The position numbers and the translations under genes were made by a program. Positions 10 through 13,402 of a stretch of 32,000 nucleotides of DNA are shown piece by piece (position 1 is the first letter of the stretch; every line of letters starts with the position of its first letter). The stretch is from NCBI GenBank assembly GCA_016291435.1, contig JAEEXH010000007.1, positions 25,207-57,206 of the forward strand. Direction: 5' to 3'. Below the pieces are notes generated by a model that was not told the DNA's origin, searched no databases, and saw only the letters and a program-made list of their open reading frames with translations. Source of the stretch: Oscillospiraceae bacterium (GTDB lineage Bacteria; Bacillota; Clostridia; Oscillospirales; Ruminococcaceae).

Positions 10-978
10 GTGCGCATTTTCCGCAAGCCGCAGGATAACATCGAACGCCTGCGGGAAGCCTGTCCGAGCGGTCTGCACTTTGTTGTCGGCGACACGCACT
101 GTGCGGCGCAGACACTTTGTGATCTGCTCGAAAAGATCGCATTTGATCCGCAGAAGGATCATGTGTATTTTGTCGGCGATTACAATTCCGGCGGCGATCC
201 GACCCCGCTGCTGCGGGTTCTGGCGATGTTCTATGAACCCGATCTCAGTCTGCCGGGATTTCACCTGATCCGCGGCAATCACGAACGGGAGCTCGGTCCT
301 TCCTATCCGCTTCCGAATCTGCCGGATATGTTCGTGCTGCGCGGCAGGCAGCTGACCTATTACATCACGCACTCGGGCATGGTGACAGACGCCTTCGATG
401 CTGTCAATGCGGACATGGCGGAGTCGCCGGAGCAGCGGCATTTCGCCTATCGGTTCGATGAGGCATGCGTCCGGAGGGAGGGCGGCCCGCTGCGTGAGGT
501 GATCTGGTCACGCGGCGGCCTGTTCCATCAGAATTCGGGCGGCAGACGCTGGCCGACCGAGCAGAACCTGTATGCACACGGTGCGCTCATTCTGCACGGG
601 CATGCACCCTACAGCTATTTCTGCGAGAAAAACGGGTACGGCGAGGAAAATGTGTTTTTTGAAGAGGCACATGTCTGGTTCAGCGAGGCGCTTTTTTCGT
701 TCAATCTCGATTCCGATGTGAAGGGCAGGAACAAAAACGGCGAGACCTATCGCGGGCTCACTGCGCTTTGCCTGGAGGTCTGCGAAGAGATCGCGGCACA
801 GTGTGAGGGGCGGCTGACACGCGAGGGCGTTCTGGCTGCGCAGAATCCTGTTTTCTCTGTCCCGTACCGATGGCAGAGTGAAGCGCTGCCGGGCGGCGAC
901 CTGAACCGCATTCTGGAGGCGGCGCCGGAGCAAAAGACAATCTGGCTCGGGCAGGACAGGTGCATCTATATATATTAA
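10..978 (+). CDS. Calcineurin-like metallophosphoesterase (PPP-type phosphatase fold)
   Basis: 322-aa ORF with GTG at 10. The frame stays open to the window edge, so the true start may lie upstream. The translation shows the ordered metallophosphoesterase motifs VVGDTHC (GDxH), VGDYNSGGD (GDxxDxG-like), IRGNHE (GNHE) and ILHGHAP (HGH). Confidence 0.7.
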   Translation: MRIFRKPQDNIERLREACPSGLHFVVGDTHCAAQTLCDLLEKIAFDPQKDHVYFVGDYNSGGDPTPLLRVLAMFYEPDLSLPGFHLIRGNHERELGPSYPLPNLPDMFVLRGRQLTYYITHSGMVTDAFDAVNADMAESPEQRHFAYRFDEACVRREGGPLREVIWSRGGLFHQNSGGRRWPTEQNLYAHGALILHGHAPYSYFCEKNGYGEENVFFEEAHVWFSEALFSFNLDSDVKGRNKNGETYRGLTALCLEVCEEIAAQCEGRLTREGVLAAQNPVFSVPYRWQSEALPGGDLNRILEAAPEQKTIWLGQDRCIYIY

Positions 979-999
979 CCGATAAAGGAGAATTCCACT

Positions 1000-1695
1000 A
1001 TGTATCAGCCGAAGAAAATCATCGTTGTGACCGGGCATTTCGGCTCCGGCAAGACCAATTTCTCGACCGCACTGGCGCTCAGCCTTGCGAAGACCGGAGC
1101 GCCGGTCACCGTTGTCGATTTCGACCTCGTGAATCCCTATTTCCGCACTGCCGATTTCAAGGAGGCATTCGCAAAGCGCGGCATCACGCTCCGTGCGCCG
1201 GACTATGCGAACACGAATGTTGACATTCCGAGCGTGCAGTTTGACCTCGGCGGTCTCGCGGCGGCGGAGGGCTATCTCATCATCGACGTCGGCGGCGACG
1301 AGGACGGCGCAATCGCACTCGGGCGTTATTCCCATGTGCTGAACAGCTATGCGGAGACGAATGAGCTCGATATGCTCGCGGTTGTCTCCTTCCGCCGCTA
1401 TCTCACCCGCACGGCAGAGGAAACGGTCGCCTATCTGCGGGGCATCGAGCGTGCAAGCCGCATGAAGCTGACGCATATCGTCAACAATACCAATCTCGGC
1501 ATGGAGACGACCGCAGAGATGATCCGTGAGAGCATGCCGCAGTGCGAAGCGCTCTCCGAAGCGATGGGTCTGCCGGTTGCCTGCGTGACAGTGCCGGAAT
1601 TCGTCGAGCCCTTTGAGCTCCCGGGCTATGATGTGATGCAGGTGCCGGTCGCGGTGCGCCTGCCGTGGATGCCGAAATCGGAAGCGGTGCAGTGA
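1000..1695 (+). CDS. P-loop NTPase, ParA/MinD/CooC-like
   Basis: 231-aa ORF with an AAGGAG RBS (aaaggagaattccactATG). It has an N-terminal Walker A (VVTGHFGSGKTN) and a Walker-B-like hydrophobic strand plus acidic residues (YLIIDVGGDED). I cannot assign a finer family by eye. Confidence 0.6.
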   Translation: MYQPKKIIVVTGHFGSGKTNFSTALALSLAKTGAPVTVVDFDLVNPYFRTADFKEAFAKRGITLRAPDYANTNVDIPSVQFDLGGLAAAEGYLIIDVGGDEDGAIALGRYSHVLNSYAETNELDMLAVVSFRRYLTRTAEETVAYLRGIERASRMKLTHIVNNTNLGMETTAEMIRESMPQCEALSEAMGLPVACVTVPEFVEPFELPGYDVMQVPVAVRLPWMPKSEAVQ

Positions 1696-1696
1696 G

Positions 1697-2050
1697 ATGA
1701 AGGGCAAGGCAAAGGACTATGCCCTGCTGCACATTCTGCTGGCGGTCTATTCGTTCGGCGGCGTCTGCGGAAAGCTGGCGGCAGGCTATCCCTTTCTGAG
1801 CATCGGCTTCTGTGTCTGCTACGGCGCAGAGCTGCTGCTGCTCGCGGGATACGCCTTCGGCTGGCAGCAGATCCTCAAGCGACTGCCGCTGACGGCAGCC
1901 TATTCGCAGAAGGGCGTGACGCTTCTCTGGGGGCTTCTCTGGGGCGTGCTGTTCTTCTCTGAGCCTGTGACACCGCAGAAGCTCGCCGGCATTTTGCTGG
2001 TGCTCTGCGGCATTGTGCTTTATGCAAAGGCGGGTGATGAAAATGGATAA
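1697..2050 (+). CDS. Half-size DMT/EamA-like membrane protein (about 4 TM), first of a pair
   Basis: 117 aa and almost entirely hydrophobic helices. The C-terminal segment (PQKLAGILLVLCGIVLY) is typical of EamA/ArnE-ArnF-type small DMT proteins. The start is 1 nt after the stop of the ATPase gene. Confidence 0.55.
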   Translation: MKGKAKDYALLHILLAVYSFGGVCGKLAAGYPFLSIGFCVCYGAELLLLAGYAFGWQQILKRLPLTAAYSQKGVTLLWGLLWGVLFFSEPVTPQKLAGILLVLCGIVLYAKAGDENG

Positions 2051-2390
2051 GCAGGTGATGCTCTACGCGGGCATTGCGCTTGCCGGCGTGTTCATCAGCG
2101 CGGTCTCGCAGGTGATCCTCAAAAAGGCAGCGGGGAAAAAGCGGGAATCCGTGTTCCGCGAATATCTCAATCTGCCTGTGATCCTTGCTTACGGCATGTT
2201 TTTCGGCGCGACGCTGCTCTCGGTCTTTGCGCTCCGCGTGATCCCGGTCTCGATGGGCGGCATTCTCGACAGCGCCGGCTATATTTTTATCACCCTGTTC
2301 GGCGTGTTCATTTTCAAGGAGAAAATCACGCCGAAAAAGGCGGCAGCGCTCCTGCTGATCCTTGCGGGGATCATCGTCTATTCACTTTGA
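2037..2390 (+). CDS. Half-size DMT/EamA-like membrane protein, second of a pair
   Basis: I chose the ATG at 2037 (MKMDKQ), which overlaps the upstream gene by 14 nt. The track start at 2013 is also possible. It has four predicted helices, an ISAVSQVILKKA motif and an EamA-like C-terminal helix (LLLILAGIIVYSL). Confidence 0.55.
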   Translation: MKMDKQVMLYAGIALAGVFISAVSQVILKKAAGKKRESVFREYLNLPVILAYGMFFGATLLSVFALRVIPVSMGGILDSAGYIFITLFGVFIFKEKITPKKAAALLLILAGIIVYSL

Positions 2391-2414
2391 CCGCGCATTT
2401 TTCACGAAAATCTA

Positions 2415-2443
2415 TTGACAGAAAAACAAATTGTTGGTATAAT
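2415..2443 (+). promoter_or_regulatory. Sigma-A type promoter for the GGDEF-EAL gene
   Basis: TTGACA (2415-2420), a 17-nt spacer, then TATAAT (2438-2443) preceded by TGg (extended -10). It lies 66 nt upstream of the ATG at 2509. Confidence 0.65.
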
Positions 2444-2508
2444 AGAGAGTGGCTAACCATATACAGAGAAAAATCGGGGGGTAAGTAAGGACGAAAGGAT
2501 GTGACGGA

Positions 2509-4803
2509 ATGAAGCGTAAGACGATCACCTCGATCGCATTTTCAGTTTTTGTCGCTTTTGCAATCATCACGGCATATATCATGGTGTATGCCTACCATCA
2601 CCGCGAGGTATCCGAGCTGGTATATCTCATCTTCAATTCCTATGCGATCGCGGCTCTGATCCTGGGGCTTGTCTTTGTGCTACACTGGCAGTATTCCAGC
2701 GCAAAGCGCAGAGAACAGGCGCAGCAGTCTCTCCGGCAGCTTGTCGAGAGCCTTGCCTCTCCCGCGATGCTCTGGAACGATGCACTCGACACAGTCATCA
2801 TGAATGACACGCTGCGGGAGCTCTCTGAGCTGACAAAATCCGGCGAGGGAGTTGATGCGAAATATATTGTGCCGTGGCTCTTCGGGCAGAAGCTCCTGAC
2901 GGAAACGCAGATCCGGGAGATCGTCCGTGCGAGAGACCGGGAGTATTCCTTCACAACGAAGAACGGCACAAAGCACGATATGATCTGGAACACCGCCGGC
3001 ATCGAGCAGGATGAGAACGGCGTCACATGGTATCTTTCCATCGGTCTGGATCTTGCGGATATCCGCCGGATGCAGTCGGAGCTGACGGATTATTCCCGCC
3101 GCCTTGCTGCCTCTGAGGGCAGACATATGCTGACGATGGAGCTCACGGATATCGGCATTCTGCTGATCGAGCAGGGCAACCCAAATATGTTCCCCTCTGA
3201 GAAGCTCCGCACGATGCTCGGGCTCAAGGGCGAGACCATTACGCTTCAGGATGTGCGTGCGAAAATCTATCCGCTTGACCTCACGATCTTTGACAACCAT
3301 GTGCAGACCATGCGCCTCCGTATGCGCGACTATCTCACGCAGACCGGCAGGCTTGAGCTGCGCATCGGCTCGGCAGACGGGCAGTACCGCTGGTATTCCT
3401 ACCGCTTCAAGGCGACACAGCGCACCGACACCGGCCGTCTGGTCGTCGGCGGCTCCCTGATCGACATTACACCTGAGAAGGAGAAGGATCAGCGCATCGA
3501 GCGGCTGGCATATGAGGATGAGGTCACGGGCATCCCGAACCGCAACGGACTGATGAAGATGGGACGCGACCTCTATCAATGTACCGTGGAGCTCGGCGCA
3601 GTCTACTGGGTCATTGCGCTGGATATCGACCGCTTCCACCTGATCAACGACACCTGCGGCTATGAAAACGGCAATCAGCTCCTGCGCGGCTTTGCGGAGA
3701 CGCTGAAAAAGCAGCTCAATCTCGGCGGCTTCGGTGCACGCATTTCGGGCGACAATTTTGCGCTGATCCTCCGTGATTCCGGCGATGAGGATCTCCCCGC
3801 AAAGGTCGTCGGGCGCATTCAGCGCAGCCTTGCGACGCTTGCCGTCGGTCCCTTTGCGAACCGTGCGCTGACCTGCTCTGCGGGCTATGCGCGGATGCCT
3901 GCGGACGGCGAGAGCTTTGAGCAGGTGCTGGAGCGTGCGGAGTTTGCACTCTCCTCCGGCAAGGCGATCCTCGGCAGCATCGACCGCTATACATCGGCTA
4001 TGCATGACAGCATCGTCACGGAGAGCGTGCTGGAGAAGGAGCTCACCGACGCTGTGATGAACCGGCAGCTTGAGGTGTATTATCAGCCGAAGGTTTCGCT
4101 CGATACAGGCAGAGTGGTCGGCATGGAAGCGCTGATCCGCTGGCATCATCCGGACGGGCGCCTGATTCCGCCGAGTGTGTTCATCCCGATTGCGGAACGG
4201 TCGGCGCTCATCACGCAGATCACACGCTTTGCGCTCTATGAAGCCTGCCGCCAGACACGGCTCTGGCAGAAGCTCGGGCTCCCGGAGATTGTCATTTCCG
4301 TCAATATGAGCAGCACCGATTTCTATCAGGAAAATGTCTGCGCGATGGTGCAGAGGGCGCTCGAAAAGAACGATTTGCAGCCGCAGTATCTTGAAATTGA
4401 GCTGACGGAGTCGCTGGCGCTCAAGGATATTGACACAACGATCACGCGCATGAAGGAGCTCCGCGAAGCTGGCATCGGCATCGCGATGGACGATTTCGGC
4501 ACCGGCTATTCCTCGCTGAGCTATATTCAGATGCTTCCCTTTACGATGGTCAAGCTCGACAGCTCGTTTATCTTCAATATGGATCAGGATAAGGTGATTG
4601 AGGAGATTGTCAAGTCTGTCATTCACATTGCGAATACAAAGGGCATCGGCACGATCGCAGAGGGCGTCGAGACTGAGGCGCAGGAGAAATTGCTGCGTGC
4701 GTTCGGCTGCGGACAGGTGCAGGGCTTCCATTACGGCAAACCGATGCCGGCGAAGGAAGCAGAAGCCTTTATGCGCGAGAACATGAAGCAGCACGGGGTC
4801 TGA
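2509..4803 (+). CDS. Membrane-anchored PAS / degenerate-GGDEF / EAL protein (probable c-di-GMP phosphodiesterase)
   Basis: 764 aa with two N-terminal TM helices and PAS-like repeats. The GGDEF-domain core reads GIPNRNG...DIDRFHLINDTCGY...RISGDNFALIL, so the signature is SGDNF rather than GG(D/E)EF. The EAL-domain motif set is complete: EALIRW, SVNMS, EIELTES, DDFGTGYSSL, KLD, EGVE and QGFHYGKP. Confidence 0.85.
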   Translation: MKRKTITSIAFSVFVAFAIITAYIMVYAYHHREVSELVYLIFNSYAIAALILGLVFVLHWQYSSAKRREQAQQSLRQLVESLASPAMLWNDALDTVIMNDTLRELSELTKSGEGVDAKYIVPWLFGQKLLTETQIREIVRARDREYSFTTKNGTKHDMIWNTAGIEQDENGVTWYLSIGLDLADIRRMQSELTDYSRRLAASEGRHMLTMELTDIGILLIEQGNPNMFPSEKLRTMLGLKGETITLQDVRAKIYPLDLTIFDNHVQTMRLRMRDYLTQTGRLELRIGSADGQYRWYSYRFKATQRTDTGRLVVGGSLIDITPEKEKDQRIERLAYEDEVTGIPNRNGLMKMGRDLYQCTVELGAVYWVIALDIDRFHLINDTCGYENGNQLLRGFAETLKKQLNLGGFGARISGDNFALILRDSGDEDLPAKVVGRIQRSLATLAVGPFANRALTCSAGYARMPADGESFEQVLERAEFALSSGKAILGSIDRYTSAMHDSIVTESVLEKELTDAVMNRQLEVYYQPKVSLDTGRVVGMEALIRWHHPDGRLIPPSVFIPIAERSALITQITRFALYEACRQTRLWQKLGLPEIVISVNMSSTDFYQENVCAMVQRALEKNDLQPQYLEIELTESLALKDIDTTITRMKELREAGIGIAMDDFGTGYSSLSYIQMLPFTMVKLDSSFIFNMDQDKVIEEIVKSVIHIANTKGIGTIAEGVETEAQEKLLRAFGCGQVQGFHYGKPMPAKEAEAFMRENMKQHGV

Positions 4804-4867
4804 ACATAATCCTGTAAAACAGGGGTATTTACCCAAAGTCAACGAATACAGAAAGGAAAGAAAACAC

Positions 4868-5950
4868 ATGAAAAAAAGAATTGGTATTTTAACATCCGGC
4901 GGCGACTGCCCCGGCCTGAACGCGACCATCCGCGGCGTTGCAAAGGCATGCTTTGAACTGATGGGCGAGGACAATGTCGAGATCATCGGCATCTCCAACG
5001 GCTACTACGGCCTCATCCATAACCTCTGCAAGCCGATGGCACCCGCCGATTTCTCCGGCATCCTCACACAGGGCGGCACCATCCTCGGCACCAAGCGGCA
5101 GCCGTTCAAGATGATGACCGTCATCGGCGACGACAACGTCGATAAAGTGAAGAATATGCGCGAGACCTACCAGAAGCAGAAGCTCGACTGCCTGCTCACG
5201 CTCGGCGGCAACGGCACCCACAAGACCTCCTATCTGCTCCAGCAGGAGGGGCTCAATGTCATCGGTCTGCCGAAGACCATCGACAATGATATCTACGGCA
5301 CCGATGTCACCTTCGGCTTCCATACCGCCGTCGATACCGCAACGGATGCCATCGACCGCCTGCACACGACCGCTGCCTCTCACAGCCGTATTCTCGTCTG
5401 CGAGATCATGGGCAACAAGGCGGGCTGGCTTACACTCAATGCGGGCATCGCGGGCGGCGCGGATATCATCCTGATCCCTGAGATCCCCTACGACATCGAC
5501 AAGGTCTGCGAGGCTGTCATGAAGCGCGCCGCAAACGGCAAGACCTTCTCGATCCTTGCGGTCGCAGAGGGCGCCTTCGACAAGGACGAGGCGAAGATGA
5601 AGAAGAAGGAGCGCGCAAAGAAGCGCGAGGAAGCCGGCATCCTGACCGCGACCTCCCGCATTGCCGCGCAGATTCAGGCGGGCACCGGCATCGACACGCG
5701 TGTCTGCGTGCCGGGTCATATGCTCCGCGGCGGCTCCCCGAGCGCCTATGACCGCATCCTCGCGACAAAGTTCGGCGTGCATGCGGCAAAGCTCATTGAG
5801 AGCGAAAAATACGGCAGAACGGTCGCAATGGTCGCAGGAAAGGTCACATCGAACAAGCTCGAGGACATTGCCGGTCTGACGAAGTTTGTCAGCCCGAAGG
5901 ATCAGCTTGTCGTGACCGCAAAGCGCATCGGCGTGTCGTTCGGCGACTGA
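4868..5950 (+). CDS. pfkA: 6-phosphofructokinase
   Basis: 360 aa with RBS gaaaggaaag. PFK motifs are present: GILTSGGDCPGLN, TLGGNGT, GLPKTIDNDI, EIMGNKAGWL and PGHMLRGG. Confidence 0.85.
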   Translation: MKKRIGILTSGGDCPGLNATIRGVAKACFELMGEDNVEIIGISNGYYGLIHNLCKPMAPADFSGILTQGGTILGTKRQPFKMMTVIGDDNVDKVKNMRETYQKQKLDCLLTLGGNGTHKTSYLLQQEGLNVIGLPKTIDNDIYGTDVTFGFHTAVDTATDAIDRLHTTAASHSRILVCEIMGNKAGWLTLNAGIAGGADIILIPEIPYDIDKVCEAVMKRAANGKTFSILAVAEGAFDKDEAKMKKKERAKKREEAGILTATSRIAAQIQAGTGIDTRVCVPGHMLRGGSPSAYDRILATKFGVHAAKLIESEKYGRTVAMVAGKVTSNKLEDIAGLTKFVSPKDQLVVTAKRIGVSFGD

Positions 5951-5971: not shown

Positions 5972-7084
5972 ATGAACGATAGAATCAACGAAAGCAGGAC
6001 CGCGGAAATTGCGGAGATTGTACGGGAGGGCGGCGCGGATGCTGTGCTCCTCACAAGCGAGGTCTCGCTCATTTACGCGGCAGGCGTCACGGCGATGGAG
6101 GGCGCATGCGTCATCACCGCGGACGGCACGGCGTATTTCATCACCGACGGACGCTATATCGAGGTCGCAGAGCAGCGGATCGCACCGCAGGGCTTTACGG
6201 TCATCTGCCGCAGGAATGCAGAGGCGCTTTCTGCCTTCCTGACGCAGATCTTCGAGGAACACGCCGTCCGCAGGCTCCTCTATGAGGACGCCTATCTGAC
6301 CGTGCAGGAATTTGCAGGCCTGCGCGACAATCTCGGCACTGTCAAGGAATTCCTGCCCGCGAGCCGTCAGCTTGCGGCGCTGCGTGCCTGCAAGTCTCAG
6401 CGCGAGATCGGCTGCATCATCCGCGCACAGCGCATCGCAGAGCAGGCGCTTTCCCGTCTGCTGCCGGAGCTTTACACCGGCATCACCGAGCGCGAGGCGG
6501 CAGCGCGGCTCAATTATTACATGGCACTCGGCGGCAGCGAAAAGCCGTCGTTCGACACGATCATGCTGTTCGGCGAAAACACGAGCAAGCCGCACGGCAC
6601 GCCCTCCGACCGCGCACTGCGTCCGGGTGATTTCATCACGATGGATTTCGGCGCGGTGTATGAGGGCTATCATTCCGACATGACGCGCACGGTCGCCTAC
6701 GGCAGCGCGACCGACAAAATGCGTGAGGTCTATGAGACCGTGCTGCGGGCACAGTCTGCTGCGGCGACGGTCGCGCAGGCAGGGCTCCGCTGCTGCGATA
6801 TGCACAATGCCGCGATGAATGTGATTGAGCGTGCAGGATACGGACAGTATTTCACGCATGCGCTCGGGCACACCGTCGGGCTGGAGATCCATGAATACCC
6901 GATCGCGGCGCCGCGCTGCGAGGTGCTCCTCAGAGACGGCATGGTCATGACGGACGAGCCGGGCATCTATATCGCAGGGGAATTCGGCGTGCGGATCGAG
7001 GACATGCTTGTGATCTGCGGCGGGACACCGCAGAATCTGACGGAGGCACCGAAGGAATTTACGGTCTTGCCGGAACGGAGGTAA
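5972..7084 (+). CDS. M24B family Xaa-Pro aminopeptidase/dipeptidase
   Basis: 370 aa with a creatinase-like N-domain. The pita-bread metal-ligand pattern is present: DFGAVYEGYHSDMTRT, HALGHTVGLEIHE, EPGIY and VRIEDM. Confidence 0.85.
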   Translation: MNDRINESRTAEIAEIVREGGADAVLLTSEVSLIYAAGVTAMEGACVITADGTAYFITDGRYIEVAEQRIAPQGFTVICRRNAEALSAFLTQIFEEHAVRRLLYEDAYLTVQEFAGLRDNLGTVKEFLPASRQLAALRACKSQREIGCIIRAQRIAEQALSRLLPELYTGITEREAAARLNYYMALGGSEKPSFDTIMLFGENTSKPHGTPSDRALRPGDFITMDFGAVYEGYHSDMTRTVAYGSATDKMREVYETVLRAQSAAATVAQAGLRCCDMHNAAMNVIERAGYGQYFTHALGHTVGLEIHEYPIAAPRCEVLLRDGMVMTDEPGIYIAGEFGVRIEDMLVICGGTPQNLTEAPKEFTVLPERR

Positions 7085-7599
7085 TGCGGATGCATTCTTT
7101 TGCGGGATTTGTGATCGTACTCTTTAGCGCTCTGTATGTGTTTGCGTTTGTCTACTTGCAGTATACAAAGAAGAAAATGCTTGCGCACGGTGATTTTGTC
7201 AAGCGGACGCAGGATTTTGCCGATTATGCGGAGATCTTCATGGTCGCAGATCCGACCGCCACGCTGCGCGGCATTGCGCTGGAGCTGAAGGAAGCTGCGG
7301 AGAACGGTGCGTTTTTCCGTCAGAACATTTCCTTCGGCATAAAGAACAATATCCTGCTTGTGAGAAACCCGAACTGGACGGCACAGTTTTTCCAGGTTGA
7401 GCCGCCTGCCGAGCGTCCGGATGTGACGATGTTTGTGTTCACTTTCACTTCATTCACAACTTCTTACGGCACTCCGAAGGGGGCGGTATCCATGAACCGT
7501 TTTCTGACGGCACTGGAAAAGGCACTTCTCCGCCGTGACCCGAACGCGCTGGTGCGTTGTTCCCTTGAGGAGATGGAAGAACAAAGGAGAAGCATATGA
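7084..7599 (+). CDS. Cassette 1, gene A: single-pass membrane protein with an unassigned roughly 130-aa domain
   Basis: 171 aa. Its ATG shares one nucleotide with the TAA stop of the peptidase gene. One N-terminal TM helix (FAGFVIVLFSALYVFAFVYL). It is a clear paralog of 8296..8802, with shared blocks DYAEIF, W-TA, (E/A)RP(D/E)V, GTP and MNRFLT-(L/I)EK-L-R-DP-LVR. Confidence 0.7.
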   Translation: MRMHSFAGFVIVLFSALYVFAFVYLQYTKKKMLAHGDFVKRTQDFADYAEIFMVADPTATLRGIALELKEAAENGAFFRQNISFGIKNNILLVRNPNWTAQFFQVEPPAERPDVTMFVFTFTSFTTSYGTPKGAVSMNRFLTALEKALLRRDPNALVRCSLEEMEEQRRSI

Positions 7600-7835
7600 A
7601 CGAAACGATGATTGTACCGATTGCGCTGTTTGCCGGTGGGCTGGCGGCAGCATGGATTGTTTACCGGCTGCTTGACCGTGCGGAATCTTCCATCCGGACC
7701 GGGCATAACAAAAAGCGGGCTGAGCGTTATGTCAGAAAGCAGCAGCAACAGGCTGTGAATGCGTTATGTCCGCGCTGCGGCAAGCCGATGACAGTCGAAG
7801 AAGAGTTTTGTCAGCACTGCGGCACGCATCGCTGA
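7596..7835 (+). CDS. Cassette 1, gene B: small TM protein with C-terminal zinc ribbon
   Basis: 79 aa with an ATGA start/stop overlap onto gene A. It has an N-terminal TM helix, a Lys/Arg-rich linker and the zinc ribbon CPRCG-x10-CQHCG. It is a paralog of 8823..9074 (shared CPxCGKP...E(F/Y)CxxCGT). Confidence 0.7.
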   Translation: MNETMIVPIALFAGGLAAAWIVYRLLDRAESSIRTGHNKKRAERYVRKQQQQAVNALCPRCGKPMTVEEEFCQHCGTHR

Positions 7836-7855
7836 CGGTTTGAAAGGGTGCAGGA

Positions 7856-8266
7856 ATGAGTATGTGTTTTGCAGATTTCACGGGGGCAGATCTGATCCTT
7901 CTGATTATCAGCGTTGTGTTCATAGCCGTTATTCTGCTGGTGCACAGTGTGCTCGACAGACTGATCTCGGCATTGCTCGAAAAGATGGGGCTGGAGATCA
8001 GCCGTACCTCTGCCATTCCGAATTCGCCGCAGTTTGTTCGTCTCTCAACGCATTTCAAGGATGCTGAGCATGGACTCCGCTGCATCTGGTTCAAGCCAAT
8101 CGGCTACGGACTCGGAGCGGAAAAGCGCGTTGCGGAGATTCAGGCAAAGCGGGCAGCTGAAAAAGCAAAGAAGCCGCAGGGCGATGCGCCGGCATTTTGC
8201 CCGAGCTGCGGCGGCAGCATTTCCCCGGAGGATCATTTCTGCAAATCCTGCGGGACAAGGCTTTGA
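7856..8266 (+). CDS. Cassette 1, gene C: TM protein with C-terminal zinc ribbon
   Basis: 136 aa. It has an N-terminal TM helix, then LDRL and FxRLxxHF blocks, a charged AEKxxAE-type linker and the zinc ribbon CPSCG-x10-CKSCG. It is a paralog of 9071..9619. Confidence 0.7.
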   Translation: MSMCFADFTGADLILLIISVVFIAVILLVHSVLDRLISALLEKMGLEISRTSAIPNSPQFVRLSTHFKDAEHGLRCIWFKPIGYGLGAEKRVAEIQAKRAAEKAKKPQGDAPAFCPSCGGSISPEDHFCKSCGTRL

Positions 8267-8295
8267 ATACATTCACATAGAAAGGGTGGATTTGT

Positions 8296-8802
8296 GTGAA
8301 ACCGTGGGCTGTTGTTTTATTTATTGTGCTCGGCATCGCCTTCGTGTTCATTGCCGTCTGGTACAGCAAATACAAGCGGCGGGCACGCGCAGTCGGACTG
8401 CTTGTGAACCGCAAGGGCGGCTTCTATGATTACGCGGAGATCTTTCTGCTCCGCAAGGTGTCGATCAATGACGTCTGGGAGAGCCTGAATCAGCTGATCA
8501 AGGCAAATGCGGTCCGCGACTGCATGAAGACCGCGGAGCTCAAGGGCTATCAGATCACTGTGAAGCATGAAAATATGGGGTATACATGGACGGCGTTCAT
8601 CCAGGAGATGGAGGAGCCGAAGGCGCGCCCGGAGGTCTCTGTGTTCCGTGTGATGTTCCCGCAGTATTTCGTCAAGAACGGCACGCCGGATACGGCTACG
8701 ATGAACCGCTTTCTGACGGAAATCGAAAAGCTGTTCCTGCGCCTTGACCCGGATACCCTTGTGCGTTCGCAGCGCCCGAACGACACATTGACCGAGAACT
8801 GA
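8296..8802 (+). CDS. Cassette 2, gene A': paralog of 7084..7599
   Basis: 168 aa with a GTG start and RBS aaagggtgga 6 nt upstream. It has one N-terminal TM helix. By eye, the C-terminal roughly 60 aa are about half identical to gene A. Confidence 0.7.
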   Translation: MKPWAVVLFIVLGIAFVFIAVWYSKYKRRARAVGLLVNRKGGFYDYAEIFLLRKVSINDVWESLNQLIKANAVRDCMKTAELKGYQITVKHENMGYTWTAFIQEMEEPKARPEVSVFRVMFPQYFVKNGTPDTATMNRFLTEIEKLFLRLDPDTLVRSQRPNDTLTEN

Positions 8803-8822
8803 TCGAACGGAGGCAGCGTGTT

Positions 8823-9074
8823 ATGAAAGAAGCATTGTTTTTGATCATCCTGTTTGTGATCGCTTACTTTGTGATGAAGTTTGTACGCAAAACAGGTGCC
8901 AAAGGGGAAAATGCGGTCCGCAGAAAGCTTGAACGCAGCAGACGGCAGCGGGAAGCGGAGAATCAGCTCCCCTATGCGTGGAACTGTCCGCTGTGCGGAA
9001 AGCCGCAGACAACCGCTGCGGAATATTGCCGGAGCTGCGGAACGAAGCGGAGTGAAACGGGGGTGCAGCAATGA
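8823..9074 (+). CDS. Cassette 2, gene B': small TM protein with C-terminal zinc ribbon
   Basis: 83 aa with an N-terminal TM helix, a basic linker and the zinc ribbon CPLCG-x10-CRSCG. Confidence 0.7.
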   Translation: MKEALFLIILFVIAYFVMKFVRKTGAKGENAVRRKLERSRRQREAENQLPYAWNCPLCGKPQTTAAEYCRSCGTKRSETGVQQ

Positions 9075-9619
9075 TGTATGTTGCAATGGCAGAATCCGCA
9101 GCCGGCAATGTGATTATTCTTGTGCTTGCCGTTGTGATTGTCGGCGCGGTCTTTCTGTTCTATGATGCCCTGGACCGCTTGCTCGACGGCATCATTGAGT
9201 CGATCTCGAAGAATCTCGGCGGCGCGGATGCCGTGGTGAACGATATTGAATTCCGGCGTCTGGATTCGCATTTCAGAGCGGTTATCATCCCGATGGCGCA
9301 GATGCTCGAGATCCGCGATTTCAAGGAAACAGAGAAGCTCGGCGCAGCCGTGATTGCAGCGCAGAAGGAAGCGGAGATCACAGGCGCAGCCCCCGCCGCG
9401 CCGATGAGACCCGCAGCACCGGCGGCACAGCAGCAGCCGGCAGCGCCCGCATCAGCGCAGGAGCAGCAGCCCGCAGCACCGGCAGCGGAGCCTGCCTATT
9501 CAGAGCTTCCCTGCCCTTCCTGCGGTACGATGAACAATGCGCGTGCGCGGTTCTGCAAGGCGTGCGGCGGCAGAATGCAGCCCGATCAGCCGCCCGTCGA
9601 TCCGCCCGCAGAGCAGTAA
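9071..9619 (+). CDS. Cassette 2, gene C': TM protein with Pro/Ala/Gln-rich linker and C-terminal zinc ribbon
   Basis: 182 aa with an ATGA overlap onto B'. It has a TM helix and the LDRLLDGII and FRRLDSHF blocks shared with gene C. A low-complexity linker (AAPAAPMRPAAPAAQQQPAAPASAQEQQPAAPAAEPA) precedes the zinc ribbon CPSCG-x10-CKACG. Confidence 0.7.
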   Translation: MMYVAMAESAAGNVIILVLAVVIVGAVFLFYDALDRLLDGIIESISKNLGGADAVVNDIEFRRLDSHFRAVIIPMAQMLEIRDFKETEKLGAAVIAAQKEAEITGAAPAAPMRPAAPAAQQQPAAPASAQEQQPAAPAAEPAYSELPCPSCGTMNNARARFCKACGGRMQPDQPPVDPPAEQ

Positions 9620-9643
9620 ACGGCAATTTCATGCGCGGCACTA

Positions 9644-9672
9644 TTGAAAAAATTACTCCGATGTGGTATAAT
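9644..9672 (+). promoter_or_regulatory. Sigma-A type promoter for metG
   Basis: TTGAAA (9644-9649), a 17-nt spacer, then TGgTATAAT (TATAAT at 9667-9672). It lies 37 nt upstream of the ATG. Confidence 0.6.
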
Positions 9673-9708
9673 AAGCAGACAAAGATATTACCGAAAGGAC
9701 CGAATTGA

Positions 9709-11760
9709 ATGGCAAGACACAGAGGCGCTGCGGGCGATAAGCCGCAGTTTGAGATTCCGAGACCGCAGTTTCCGAAGCGCGCGGTCGTCACGGGCGGCAT
9801 GCCCTACGGCAATAAGGAGCTGCATTTCGGGCATGTCGGCGGCATGCTCGTGTTCGCCGATACCTATGCGCGGTTTCTGCGCGACCGCATCGGCAGCGAG
9901 AACGTGATCTTCGTTTCCGGCACCGACTGCTATGGCTCCCCGATCGCGGAGGGCTGGCGCAAGAAGGTCGAGAGCGGCGAGTTTGAAGGCACGCTTGAGG
10001 AATTTGTGCAGCGCAATCATGAGAAGCAGAAGGCGACCCTCGCCGCATACGGCATCGCACCCAATCTCTTCGGCGCATCCGGGCTCGGCCGCACAAAGGA
10101 GATTCACGCGGAGTATACGCTGGAATTTTTGCAGGCGCTCTATGACAAGGGGCAGCTTGAGCAGATCTCCACCATGCAGTTTTTCGATGAGAAGGCCGGC
10201 GTCTTCCTGAACGGCAGGCAGGTGACGGGCAAGTGTCCCGTGGCAGGCTGCCAGTCCGAGAAGGGCTATGCCGACGAATGCGATCTCGGGCATCAGTATA
10301 TGCCGGAGAACCTCATCGACCCGGTCTCTGCGCTGACCGGCGAGAAGCCGACCATGCGCCCTGTCACCAACTGGTATTTCAAGCTGCGCGACTATGAAGC
10401 ACTCATGCGCGAGTGGGTCGAAAAGATGCAGAAGGACAAGACAATCCGTCCGGTCGTCTGGAAGACCATCGCGGAATTCTTAAAGCCGCCTGCCATTTAC
10501 ATCAAGCGCGAGTTCGAGGAGAAGTATCTTTCGCTGAAAGACAGCATGCCCGCGCATACCTATCTTGAGGAGCCGAAAAAGCCCTCGTTCACGATCGAGT
10601 TCACCGCGCTTTCCGACTGCGATGACGCCTGCCGCATCCTCACGGAGAACGGCATCCGCTACCGCACCGGCAAGACGCTGGTGCCCTTCCGCCTGACCGG
10701 CAACATCGAGTGGGGCGTTCCCGCGCCGGTGCTGGAGGGCGCAGAGGGTCTGACCGTCTGGGTCTGGCCGGAATCGCTCTGGGCACCGATCTCCTTCACG
10801 CAGGCATATCTCGAGCAGTCGGGGAAGCCCCGTGCAGCGTGGAAGGACTACTGGTGCAGCCGCGATGCGAAGGTCTATCAGTTCATCGGGCAGGATAATA
10901 TCTATTTCTACGGCATCGCCGAGCCCGCCATGTGGATGGCGCAGCAGGCATCTGCCGAGAAGACCTGTGACCCGCCCGAGGGCGAGCTGCAAATGCCGAC
11001 CATCGTCGCGAATTATCATATTCTGTTCCTTGACAAGAAGGCGTCGAGCTCCGGCGCGGTCAAGCCCCCGATGGCAGACGATCTGCTGAACTACTACACC
11101 CCGGAGCAGCTCCGCATGCACTGGCTGGAGCTGGGTCTCGGGCAGCAGTCCGTGAGCTTCATGCCCAAGCCCTTCAATCAGCCGCTGCTTGAGGAAGAAG
11201 CACGCGCAAAGGAAGCGGGCACCGGCGAGAAGTTCCCCGACCCTGTCGTCAAGAATGCGCTGCTCTCGAATGTCTATAACCGCATCATCCGCACGGCGTT
11301 CTATACTGCGCAGAAGCTCTATGACGGTGTGCTCCCGGCTGTGCAGCCCGAAGAAGATGTGCTGGCAGAGGCAAAGAAGGCTGTGCTCGAATATGAACGC
11401 CACATGGCAAAGTTCGCGTTCCATCAGTGTACCTATGTGCTCGACGGCTATATCCGCAGCGCAAGCAAATATATGAGCCGCGTGCTGAAGGCGGATTCCG
11501 AGGCAAATGCTGAGACCGCACAGGCGCTCGCAAACCTCTTCCACATGATCCGCACGGCGGCGGTGCTCCTGCATCCGATGGCACCCTTCGGCACAGAGAA
11601 GGTGCGGGAATATTTGCAGGTTGACGAGCGCATCTGGTCCTGGGATCACATCTTTGAGCCGCTGACGGCGTTCACCGGCGAGAACCACAAGCTGAAATTC
11701 CTCCCGCCGCGCACGGATTTCTTCACGCGGCATGAGTCGCAGTTTGCAGAGGAAGCATGA
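9709..11760 (+). CDS. metG: Methionine--tRNA ligase (long, atypical form)
   Basis: 683 aa. The class I aaRS/MetRS pattern is GGMPYGNKELHFGHVGG...ADTYARFLRDRIG..V.FVSGTDCYGSPI. It has a connective-peptide knuckle (CPVAGC...ECDLGH) and the MetRS block FIGQDNIYFYGIAEPAMWMA. The KMSKS position reads KASSS. Confidence 0.8.
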   Translation: MARHRGAAGDKPQFEIPRPQFPKRAVVTGGMPYGNKELHFGHVGGMLVFADTYARFLRDRIGSENVIFVSGTDCYGSPIAEGWRKKVESGEFEGTLEEFVQRNHEKQKATLAAYGIAPNLFGASGLGRTKEIHAEYTLEFLQALYDKGQLEQISTMQFFDEKAGVFLNGRQVTGKCPVAGCQSEKGYADECDLGHQYMPENLIDPVSALTGEKPTMRPVTNWYFKLRDYEALMREWVEKMQKDKTIRPVVWKTIAEFLKPPAIYIKREFEEKYLSLKDSMPAHTYLEEPKKPSFTIEFTALSDCDDACRILTENGIRYRTGKTLVPFRLTGNIEWGVPAPVLEGAEGLTVWVWPESLWAPISFTQAYLEQSGKPRAAWKDYWCSRDAKVYQFIGQDNIYFYGIAEPAMWMAQQASAEKTCDPPEGELQMPTIVANYHILFLDKKASSSGAVKPPMADDLLNYYTPEQLRMHWLELGLGQQSVSFMPKPFNQPLLEEEARAKEAGTGEKFPDPVVKNALLSNVYNRIIRTAFYTAQKLYDGVLPAVQPEEDVLAEAKKAVLEYERHMAKFAFHQCTYVLDGYIRSASKYMSRVLKADSEANAETAQALANLFHMIRTAAVLLHPMAPFGTEKVREYLQVDERIWSWDHIFEPLTAFTGENHKLKFLPPRTDFFTRHESQFAEEA

Positions 11761-11948
11761 ATCAGATCCTATCGAGCCTTGTGAAGCTCGGCGTGACGGT
11801 CTACCTGCTCTTCGGCGGCTACACGCTTTTCTGCGGATTTCTTGAGAAAAGCCGAAAGAAAAAGATCGCAGGCGCGCTGATTCTTCTGATCCCGACTGTA
11901 ATCCTGATCACGCTGATCGTGATCCTCTCGAAAAAATACGGCGCATAA
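11757..11948 (+). CDS. Small hydrophobic protein (2 TM), unknown function
   Basis: 63 aa with an ATGA overlap onto the metG stop. It has two hydrophobic helices separated by KSRKKK and is followed directly by a terminator hairpin. Confidence 0.45.
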   Translation: MNQILSSLVKLGVTVYLLFGGYTLFCGFLEKSRKKKIAGALILLIPTVILITLIVILSKKYGA

Positions 11949-11952
11949 AAAA

Positions 11953-11977
11953 CCGCCCCCTCTGTCTGAGGGGACGG
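11953..11977. terminator. Hairpin between convergent genes (probable bidirectional terminator)
   Basis: CCGCCCCCTC-tgtct-GAGGGGACGG, a 10-bp stem with one mismatch. An A-run lies upstream on the plus strand. It sits between the stop at 11948 (+) and the stop at 11985 (-). Confidence 0.55.
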
Positions 11978-11984
11978 CTGCCTG

Positions 11985-12458
11985 TCAGTCCTGTAAGGCT
12001 ATGGCATGCTGCACGCTGTCGGCTTCTTCCTCGTAAGAAACGATGCCCTGCTGCTCCTGCGGACCGCCTGCGCTTTTGACCCCGGCAAGCAGGAAATATC
12101 CGACGGTGACGGCGATCAGGAACAGAACGGCGAGCGCGCCGATCGCGATGAAGACCGTGCGCACGGCTTTCCAGACGCGGTCGCTTCTGCGGTTGCGGAT
12201 GACGAGCTGCTCATTGAGCCGCGAGAGCTGCACGGCAAGCTCATTCTGATCCTGCGGCTGTTCGACGGGTGCGCCCAGCAGCCGGCTGACGGGTACCTCG
12301 AGCACCTCGGCGAGCTTTTGCAGCGCGTCCGCATCGGGGACAGAGAGCCCCTTTTCCCACTTGGAGACAGTCTGCCGCACGACGAATACGCGCGATGCAA
12401 GCTCCTCCTGCGACATGCCCTTTTCCTTGCGCAGGGCTTTCAGATTATCCTGTAACAT
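11985..12458 (-). CDS. XRE-family HTH regulator with C-terminal TM anchor
   Basis: I chose the start at 12458 (MLQDNLKALRKEKGMSQEELA) because an AAAGGAG RBS lies upstream of it. The track start at 12542 lacks one. It has the HTH_3 pattern SQEELA...RQTVSKWEKG and a C-terminal hydrophobic helix (VFIAIGALAVLFLIAVTVGYFLL). Confidence 0.8.
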   Translation of the reverse strand: MLQDNLKALRKEKGMSQEELASRVFVVRQTVSKWEKGLSVPDADALQKLAEVLEVPVSRLLGAPVEQPQDQNELAVQLSRLNEQLVIRNRRSDRVWKAVRTVFIAIGALAVLFLIAVTVGYFLLAGVKSAGGPQEQQGIVSYEEEADSVQHAIALQD

Positions 12459-12509
12459 GATGCACAGCTCCTTTCTGCGGAGGGGATCTTTGCCCTTCCC
12501 TTTGTGCTC

Positions 12510-12538
12510 AGTATAGCATACCGCGGGCTGTTGCGCAA
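12510..12538 (-). promoter_or_regulatory. Candidate promoter of the XRE regulator
   Basis: The minus strand reads TTGCGC (12538-12533), a 17-nt spacer, then TGcTATACT (-10 at 12515-12510). It lies about 50 nt upstream of the ATG. Confidence 0.45.
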
Positions 12539-12592
12539 GCAACGCAGATTAACATGTACGCAGATGCGTGGGTTTTCTGTGTCCGGGATGCA

Positions 12593-12958: not shown

Positions 12959-13290
12959 GAAATCATTTGCCTTGCAAAAGATGAAGCCTGCAAGCAGATG
13001 AAATTCGCAGCGGAGCTGCGAAAGAAATAAATCCGCTCCACTCGCCTGCAGGCGATTTCATCCCGAAGGGATTTCACTGCGCGAAGGCAATATCTCCCGC
13101 GGAACGCGGATTGAAATGGAACGCAGGCTGAAAATGAAATCATTTGCTGCGCAAAAGATGAAACCTGCAAGCAGATGAAATTCGCAGCAGAGCTGCGAAA
13201 GCAATAAATCCGCTCCATTCGCCCGCAGGCGATTTCATCCCGAAGGGATTTCGCTGCGCGAAGCGCAATTTCTCCCGCGGAACGCGGATT
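12959..13290. repeat. Tandem direct repeat, two units of about 154 bp with a 177-bp period
   Basis: Unit 1 (12959-13112) and unit 2 (13136-13290) align with about 11 differences, including a 1-nt indel. Each unit contains four short palindromic hairpins: TTCGCAGC-gga-GCTGCGAA, TCGCCTGCAGGCGA, ATCCC-gaa-GGGAT and CCGCG-gaa-CGCGG. Confidence 0.9.
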
Positions 13291-13295
13291 TAATT

Positions 13296-13324
13296 GAAGC
13301 CCCATGCCTGGGGCATGGGGCTTC
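13296..13324 (-). terminator. Hairpin immediately 3' of tRNA-Arg
   Basis: GAAGCCCCATGCC-tgg-GGCATGGGGCTTC, a perfect 13-bp stem. It lies 4 nt after the tRNA 3' end and is followed on the minus strand by AATTAAAT. Confidence 0.7.
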
Positions 13325-13328
13325 AAAG

Positions 13329-13402
13329 TACGCCTGATGCGATTCGAACGCACGACCTTCAGAGTCGGAGTCTGACACTCTATCCAGCTGAGCTACAGGC
13401 GC
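13329..13402 (-). tRNA. tRNA-Arg (anticodon CCG)
   Basis: The reverse complement folds by hand into a 74-nt cloverleaf. The arms are acceptor GCGCCTG/CAGGCGT, D arm GCTC-AGCTGGATA-GAGT, anticodon arm TCAGA-CTCCGAC-TCTGA (anticodon CCG), variable loop AGGTC and T arm GTGCG-TTCGAAT-CGCAT. The discriminator is A and no CCA is encoded. Confidence 0.9.

Follow-up and report, generated by a model that had tools for sequence, protein, structure and literature searches.

The window analysed here, a stretch of 32,000 nucleotides (nt) from an Oscillospiraceae bacterium (assembly GCA_016291435.1, contig JAEEXH010000007.1), encodes two tandem cassettes of small membrane proteins, which we call A-B-C and A'-B'-C' (Table 1). 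A first-pass annotation, made from the sequence alone, had described them as a duplicated three-gene cassette and as a candidate for an undescribed module. All six co-directional open reading frames (ORFs) are in the ORF list where that annotation had placed them, and their coordinates imply the ATGA overlaps it had reported at 7596 (A/B) and 9071 (B'/C'). The six proteins are all annotated as "hypothetical protein" at NCBI. Our comparisons with other genomes indicate that the conserved unit is A together with a partner from a family of small membrane proteins, named here B-type.

Table 1. Coordinates of the cassettes and of other features in the window and in related loci (TM, transmembrane; aa, amino acids).
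Feature	Sequence	Position	Strand	Length or motif	Description
A	window	7090..7599	+	169 aa (171 from 7084)	TM helix at residues 5-23 and ~130-aa alpha+beta domain
B	window	7596..7835	+	79 aa	TM helix, juxtamembrane LLDRAESSIR helix, basic linker, predicted C-terminal zinc ribbon
C	window	7862..8266	+	134 aa (136 from 7856)	TM helix, LDRLISALLEK helix, FVRLSTHF, charged linker, predicted ribbon
A'	window	8296..8802	+	168 aa, GTG start	paralog of A
B'	window	8823..9074	+	83 aa	TM helix, GAKGENAVRRK helix, basic linker, predicted zinc ribbon
C'	window	9071..9619	+	182 aa	TM and juxtamembrane helix, FRRLDSHF, Pro/Ala/Gln-rich disordered tether, predicted ribbon
B zinc ribbon	window	7767..7820	+	CPRC-x10-CQHC	
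C zinc ribbon	window	8198..8251	+	CPSC-x10-CKSC	
B' zinc ribbon	window	8985..9038	+	CPLC-x10-CRSC	
C' zinc ribbon	window	9512..9565	+	CPSC-x10-CKAC	
M24 aminopeptidase P gene	window	5972..7084	+		5 nt upstream of A; from the ORF, the Pfam annotation in L001 and the NCBI name
Sigma-70-like promoter	window	9644..9672	+	TTGAAA-17-TATAAT	extended -10 TG, 11/12 matches; consensus match only
~370-470-aa protein	L009	6720-8141			no Pfam match; downstream of module
~370-470-aa protein	L013	6950-8068			no Pfam match; downstream of module
~370-470-aa protein	L027	6390-7619			no Pfam match; downstream of module
M(R/G)KTYAYNSIIIG protein	L006	5388-5675			
M(R/G)KTYAYNSIIIG protein	L010	6674-7057			
M(R/G)KTYAYNSIIIG protein	L011	5690-5917			
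M(R/G)KTYAYNSIIIG protein	L015	2392-2622			
M(R/G)KTYAYNSIIIG protein	L016	5400-5774			
M(R/G)KTYAYNSIIIG protein	L017	5321-5560			
M(R/G)KTYAYNSIIIG protein	L019	5526-5978			
M(R/G)KTYAYNSIIIG protein	L021	4251-4559			
M(R/G)KTYAYNSIIIG protein	L022	4609-5082			
M(R/G)KTYAYNSIIIG protein	L030	6001-6384			

Neighbourhoods were sampled with a motif-guided scan, taking one genome per GTDB species, which gave 19 loci. The scan motifs came from a tight sub-alignment: the motifs of A and A' alone found no locus, and the alignment of 46 sequences had no usable stretch. The hosts are Lachnospiraceae, Oscillospiraceae, Ruminococcus, other Clostridia and Coriobacteriaceae, and include the isolate Olsenella uli An820. 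Each of the 19 loci has a single copy of A, and in 18 of them the next gene is a B-type gene on the same strand. Where a discrete ORF could be resolved (15 loci), 1-40 nt separate the two genes; in the other three (L013, L015, L016) the B-type match falls within an ORF that, with its listed start, overlaps A. In the nineteenth locus (L021) the B-type gene lies 18 nt upstream of A. The same adjacency is found in the independently retrieved loci L026-L032, and loci reached through members of the B family again have an A of 155 residues and a B of 56-59 residues followed by a third gene. The first-pass annotation had made its module depend on the recurrence of the triplet in other genomes. The pairing of A with a B-type gene does recur, but the strict A-B-C order is not kept.

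The canonical B-type protein has a transmembrane (TM) helix, a juxtamembrane helix of the form (G)NKVVDKGxDAxRNK and, after a basic spacer, ENLADR[YF]K at its C-terminus. In a profile search, the family comprised forms of ~60-70 residues without a zinc ribbon and forms of 107-132 residues with a PF13240 ribbon, none of them annotated. A second B-type gene is present in about 12 of the 19 loci, and many genomes have it upstream of A. It encodes either a two-TM protein ('M(R/G)KTYAYNSIIIG...E(K/N)A..KG.DKA.DA'), with or without NLADRF and ribbon, or a minimal protein ('TM-GNVV..IGDRA..A.ADA'), and L014 has a fused double B-type unit. In many genomes a member of the two-TM family lies on one side of A or the other, and the Pfam matches of this family are only to the ribbon. 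Ribbons are therefore a poor definition of the module, although the first-pass annotation had stressed them: most B-type partners lack a ribbon and end in NLADR[YF] instead.

Beside the hidden Markov models (HMMs) of A and of the B type stands one named RKTYAYNSIIIG. The B-family HMM matches B' at E = 1.7e-6, C at E = 1.7e-3 and B at E ~5e-3 or weaker (5e-3 being the value for the variant in L003). B and B' are found in the place of the canonical partner, with TM and juxtamembrane helices that align with those of the B family. The juxtamembrane helices of all four window proteins (LLDRAESSIR in B, GAKGENAVRR in B', VLDRLISALLE in C, ALDRLLDGIIE in C') align with the (V/L)(V/L)D(K/R)xxDA-like helix of the family, and RLSTHF of C and RLDSHF of C' align with NLADRY, the tail motif of the family being [NR]L[AS][DE][RH][YF]. 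Once their ribbons had been removed, C, C' and the C-type protein of L024 gave a profile that aligned collinearly with the core of the B family (hhalign 87.8%, E = 3.3e-6), with F.RL..HF placed on NLADRY. The partner protein of L026 matches both HMMs, which also counts for C and C' as B-type. From these alignments, C and C' are probably divergent B-type proteins, and B and C, which the first-pass annotation had listed as separate parts, seem to go back to a single B-type superfamily. Each window cassette would then consist of A and two B-type proteins, a composition that is common elsewhere in variable gene order. B would be a short protein that carries a ribbon and whose motif is lost or degenerate, and C a long one that keeps the motif as F.RL..HF, followed by a tether and a ribbon. 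In the AlphaFold2 model of C', a long TM and juxtamembrane helix (residues 3-49, predicted local distance difference test (pLDDT) ~75) and the compact ribbon (145-170, pLDDT 64-75) are separated by low-confidence helices and by the tether (~105-142, pLDDT <40).

The order-preserving paralogy of the two cassettes is far beyond chance. A and A' are 31% identical (E = 2e-22), B and B' 33% (E = 3e-12), and C and C' 24% (E = 6e-14), and the motifs that the first-pass annotation had quoted for each pair are present in the alignments. Its view that the duplication is old was borne out as well. A' is nearer to the family member P0004 (41% identity, 109 bits) than to A (75 bits), C' is nearer to the C-type protein of a sister organism (L024, 37% identity) than to C (26.5% in this comparison), and one clade holds A, A' and P0004. 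Because of this clade, and because A' and C' are nearer to the genes of the sister organism, we conclude from the sequence comparisons that the duplication is confined to this lineage and older than its split from the L024 organism. A recent duplication in situ was considered and ruled out by the same resemblance. In L024, an A'-like gene has a C'-like gene immediately after it, without a B between them, and the 3' part of a gene for an M24 aminopeptidase before it (the upstream fragment matches the C-terminus of the window peptidase). Hence, the linkage to the peptidase is locally kept and the triplet is not obligatory.

A and A' had no match in Pfam, NCBIfam, PADLOC, PHROGs or the PDB sequences, in line with the earlier description of the module as undescribed. 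Word-index searches were too insensitive to delimit their family (A alone gave one 96%-identical match, the A-family profile 10), hence the use of an exhaustive HMMER search with a profile of A and A'. This search found 205 representatives (clusters at 50% identity) at E <= 1e-3, nearly all of 150-170 residues and matched end to end. The family HMM matches A at E = 7e-39 and A' at E = 1.8e-40. The TM helix is followed by the conserved blocks G-x4-R, AEIF(T), W-x-A, Y-F-x-FT-x-W and MN-x-LLT-x2-EK-x-FL-x-LDP-x-T-x-V. Five residues (R39, N136, T140, E143 and D150) are invariant in the family, A and A' included; N136, T140 and E143 are conserved at 100% and K144 at 96%. These last four residues stand at positions i, i+4, i+7 and i+8 of helix alpha2 (132-149) and form a conserved polar stripe that, in the model, looks like an interaction surface.

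The AlphaFold2 model of A (pLDDT 91.2, predicted TM-score (pTM) 0.80) has a TM helix at residues 2-32, then a beta-alpha-beta4-alpha-beta-alpha domain. Foldseek found no match to this model at E <= 1e-3 in the PDB and nothing convincing in BFVD. The best PDB match was the KA1 domain 4yom (E = 4.6e-3, TM-scores 0.40/0.60), and further weak matches were the KA1 domain 1v5s, PA4090, the N-terminal domain of BamC and SRPBCC folds. KA1 domains bind phospholipids. Like those of the MARK/SAD kinases (4yom, 1v5s), the A domain is modelled as a beta-alpha-beta4-alpha two-layer sandwich of ~100-130 residues at the cytoplasmic membrane face, but it has extra C-terminal beta-alpha elements and its own TM anchor, and the matches are distant (Foldseek E = 4.6e-3 to 1.5e-2, TM-scores 0.36-0.60, 9-15% identity, no Pfam KA1 match). 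Membership of the KA1 family was thus rejected, and what is left is a resemblance. With helix-grip/SRPBCC folds (Bet v 1, AHSA1) and the BamC N-terminal domain, A shares an antiparallel sheet packed on long helices, at E = 0.02-0.06 and TM-scores of about 0.3-0.4, with no sequence signal and no sign of a ligand cavity. The ~130-residue alpha+beta domain of A is a new family, confidently modelled.

The four predicted zinc ribbons of the window all read CxxC-x10-CxxC over spans of 18 residues, in agreement with the identical spacing noticed in the first pass. This spacing is the plain consensus of PF13240/PF13248, and every other ribbon in the related loci has it too. The B ribbon scores 26.9 bits against PF13240, above the gathering cut-off of 25; the others fall under the Pfam cut-offs (C 26.1 against 27 and 24.8 against 25; C' 26.1 against 27; B' 17.9 against 25), with E-values from 5e-6 to 3e-3. 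Searches of Pfam, NCBIfam, PADLOC, PHROGs and the PDB sequences with proteins of the A, B and C types gave generic ribbon matches only. In the related loci ribbons occur in a minority, and in L022, L026, L014, L010 and L030 they are appended after NLADRY through a low-complexity linker. The predicted ribbons would thus be generic, optional modules of the PF13240 type carried on flexible tethers. As in many Firmicutes proteins of the PF13240/PF13248 families, they are joined to TM segments. Those Pfam entries cover only the ~23-residue ribbon and imply no function, whereas here the ribbon is C-terminal on a tether, optional on a B-type scaffold, and absent from the partner A. In L014 (Lachnospiraceae, 364-5374), five consecutive zinc-ribbon proteins surround the A gene, among them N-terminal-ribbon multi-TM proteins and one protein with three ribbons.

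Natural fusions tie, at the level of domain architecture, ribbons to A. P0053 and P0126 consist of an N-terminal ribbon, two TM helices and an A domain. P0131 has a ribbon, a TM helix, a SecDF-P1-like domain, a second TM helix and an A domain, and P0039 a lipoprotein-like domain, a TM helix and an A domain. In P0104 the A domain is followed by a TM-less segment (ISGAIDNIGASVQRKKQEE) resembling the B-type juxtamembrane helix, and this protein may be a fusion of an A domain with a B-like helix. Since two TM helices separate ribbon and A domain in the fusions, the two should lie on the same side of the membrane. Lysine and arginine (K/R) are strongly biased to the region after the TM helix in A, A', B and B' (0-1 before against 3-6 after). 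This bias, the Cys4 sites of the ribbons and the two-TM fusions together favour the cytoplasmic placement that had been proposed in the first pass: all soluble parts are predicted to be cytoplasmic, with A as a single-pass N-out/C-in protein.

Genes for exported proteins or lipoproteins recur beside the module (in L005, L008, L009/L013/L027, and as a DUF5640 gene in L030). In L008 the module adjoins a gene for a SecDF-P1-head lipoprotein, which the middle domain of P0131 resembles. The ~370-470-residue protein found downstream of the module in L009, L013 and L027 may be a fourth component in that lineage. L009 and L013 are from Coriobacteriaceae, and the copy in L027 has a signal resembling those of the twin-arginine translocation pathway, and a lipobox. 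In L030, the region 8208-12176, 2-6 kb downstream of an A-B-ribbon triplet, holds a PadR-HAAS pair together with a gene for a PspC-domain protein and the first part of a spoIIIA operon, an arrangement that may be coincidental.

The six ORFs of the window have several marks of real genes. Shine-Dalgarno-like sequences precede all of them. Identical or near-identical proteins are found in several metagenome assemblies and in an Oscillospiraceae metagenome-assembled genome (MBR6421025-29), and the A' protein has identical copies in three public metagenome contigs. The frames of C' (11 strain variants) and C (14) are intact with invariant cysteines; the variants differ only in the N-tail, at a few positions of the helices, in the low-complexity linker and at the very C-terminus, with one in-frame indel of four residues. 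Proteins of the A and B types are, moreover, conserved in many species. Against a 97.8%-identical strain (L003), A has a ratio of non-synonymous to synonymous changes (dN/dS, computed as pN/pS) of ~0.35, which is mildly purifying. One detail of the first pass should be corrected. The A start was said to share a nucleotide with the peptidase stop, which is probably not real: GGAGG precedes the ATG at 7090 by 8 nt and position 7084 by only 2 nt, and public gene calls begin at 7090 (169 residues). Because of this spacing and these calls, 7090 is the most likely start, leaving a 5-nt gap. Most assemblies start C at 7862 (134 residues). Two JGI labels look like spurious name transfers: "rubrerythrin" for B' (P0262), and "type VI secretion system component VasK" for P0163, a 62-residue B-family protein.

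Our preferred reading, to which we give a probability of about 0.55, is that the window holds two old tandem copies of a conserved, unannotated membrane-protein module acting as a cytoplasm-facing scaffold or adaptor hetero-oligomer. The module is spread over gut and rumen Clostridia and Coriobacteriia. As the genome comparison shows, its core is A with one to three small B-type membrane proteins, each with a TM helix and an amphipathic juxtamembrane helix and with a variable tail: an NLADR[YF]-type motif, a PF13240-type ribbon on a low-complexity tether, or both. Contacts between TM and juxtamembrane segments would bring A and its partners together in a hetero-oligomer on the cytoplasmic side of the membrane. 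The docking surface on A would likely be the N136-T140-E143/K144 stripe with R39, and would bind the juxtamembrane helix of the partners or their NLADRY/RLxxHF tail. The tethered tails could serve as interchangeable "hooks" keeping a ligand from the cytoplasm, be it a protein or a nucleic acid, at the membrane. Such a complex would probably be coupled to the cell envelope, given the extracytoplasmic domains fused to A in some species and the adjoining exported-protein and lipoprotein genes, and the two cassettes would be sub-functionalised isoforms. A more specific version can be put forward only very tentatively. In it, a KA1-like A domain would read the state of the inner leaflet or dock an NLADRY-type peptide, interchangeable heads would recruit clients, lipoproteins would feed in information from the envelope, and the cassettes would act as specialised isoforms.

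Several observations count against the scaffold reading or its details. B of the window barely matches the B-family HMM, and as for the NLADRY-type tail, RAERY may be what is left of it in B, whereas B' has none. Untrimmed profiles of B and C align over the ribbon only, and their homology beyond the ribbon depends on small profiles dominated by the TM helix. The K/R bias is weak in C and C'. B and C differ from their counterparts in the L003 strain by 3-4 substitutions each, too few to judge dN/dS. No recognisable catalytic or ligand-binding motif was found in the module, and fold matches that are weak even at their best (E = 4.6e-3) make a KA1-like lipid-binding role speculative. Beyond the module, the recurring exported-protein and lipoprotein genes aside, no neighbour is conserved, so that the loci give no clue to a pathway.

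Other explanations were weighed against the scaffold. We consider it unlikely that the cassettes are a Psp/Lia-like accessory module for envelope stress, in which small TM proteins and tethered ribbons sense or buffer membrane damage. Zinc-ribbon membrane proteins do recur in Psp contexts, as with Bacillus subtilis YdjG of the pspA-ydjGHI operon and the ZnR-PspC fusions, and like the present module they lie in operons with other small membrane proteins (PMC9239133; PMC11237479). However, the ribbons of YdjG are N-terminal and followed by a YpeB/NTF2-like domain, unlike the window proteins, and the cassettes have no PspA, PspC, band-7 or TPM partner and no detected sequence similarity to these systems. 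The six proteins match no PspA, PspB, PspC, LiaI/F or Toastrack family in Pfam and NCBIfam, and no Psp gene occurs in the window neighbourhood. The best, though weak, fold match of A is to the phospholipid-binding KA1, and amphipathic juxtamembrane helices are, we infer, typical of membrane-surface binders, but the KA1 similarity is below any safe threshold. As for the PadR-HAAS-...-PspC cluster 2-4 kb downstream of the module in L030, it concerns one lineage only and is not adjacent. Quite improbable, in our estimate, is a transmembrane signalling or anti-sigma-like device, with extracytoplasmic partners as sensors and the A domain and ribbon tails sequestering and releasing a regulator. The fusions of extracytoplasmic domains to a TM helix and an A domain (P0039, P0131) and the adjoining lipoprotein and exported-protein genes of several loci would suit it, yet most modules have no extracytoplasmic component. 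An extracytoplasmic function (ECF) sigma fusion gene follows A in L021, but this is the only locus where a sigma gene adjoins; no transcription or sigma factor is consistently linked and none is near the window cassettes. Zinc ribbons can bind DNA or proteins, which such a device would use, but those found here are plain CxxC-x10-CxxC ribbons without the HxxxCxxC motif of zinc-binding anti-sigma (ZAS) proteins.

A conflict system, be it a small membrane toxin with its antidote or abortive-infection or superinfection-exclusion genes duplicated in an arms race, appears very unlikely. Small single-pass membrane proteins, a tandem duplication with fast-diverged paralogs, variable C-terminal tails and a patchy spread over two phyla that share the gut and rumen habitat are what one might expect of it. 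Yet no PADLOC or PHROGs match is better than E ~1e-3, and those cover the ribbon only. The locus sits among PFK, aminopeptidase P and MetG genes, with no mobile-element signs or G+C anomaly seen around the cassettes in the window, the synteny with the M24 peptidase is kept in the sister lineage, and strain variants are highly conserved. Finally, the cassettes could be a chance cluster of generic zinc-ribbon and small membrane ORFs, some of them spurious, seeing that PF13240-type ribbons are ubiquitous in Firmicutes membrane proteins, that several ribbons score under the Pfam gathering cut-offs and that B is poorly matched by its family HMM. This is effectively refuted by the highly significant order-preserving paralogy, the adjacency of A and a B-type gene in 18 of 19 species, the fusions that join ribbon and A domain, and the intact ORFs in many strains, all six with ribosome-binding sites in the window.

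In the window, the cassettes stand in a housekeeping context, after a PFK gene (from 4868) and the M24 peptidase gene and before metG. Our consensus scan found no terminator-like site on the + strand between 4868 and the end of C' at 9619. Given the tight spacing, the ribosome-binding sites and the lack of an internal terminator, co-transcription of the cassettes with the genes for PFK and the M24 aminopeptidase is probable. The 89-nt gap between C' and metG contains the near-consensus promoter-like sequence of Table 1, which suggests separate transcription of metG. The first-pass annotation had raised a conserved link to the peptidase or to metG. The former was found in the sister locus L024 only, and the latter is not conserved; with its own promoter-like site before metG, we rejected the metG linkage as a feature of the module. 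An apparent 683-residue neighbour in L021 is in fact the ECF-sigma fusion.

Further downstream, a 63-residue two-TM ORF (11757-11948, +), whose start overlaps the metG stop by 4 nt, is among the gene calls of a public metagenome contig; neither the A nor the B-type HMM matches it. On the opposite strand, an ORF of 185 residues (11985-12542, -) runs towards the metG unit. The gene calls of a public contig have it as a 157-residue protein with an XRE-type helix-turn-helix, and in the longer, 185-residue version a rough hydropathy scan puts a TM segment at about residue 123. Positions 11951-11979 form a strong terminator-like hairpin. A Gut-1 RNA (RF01706; 55.1 bits, gathering score 50), a small RNA family from gut metagenomes with no known function, directly adjoins a tRNA gene (13227-13296 and 13329-13402, both -).

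A literature search for the A and B-type families found no description of them, and the module appears new by its distance from known systems, a label by exclusion over all libraries tested. Uncharacterised membrane modules are common in gut Clostridia, and the Clostridia of gut and rumen have very many small membrane and zinc-ribbon proteins without known role. One such cluster is now tractable: two linked families, the A domain and the B-type proteins, are defined by diagnostic motifs, the predicted fold of A, natural fusions and a conserved gene pair, and the module is present in at least one cultured organism, O. uli An820. If the proposed complex is true, it would be a new cytoplasm-facing membrane scaffold and would give a functional context to a subset of PF13240 ribbons.

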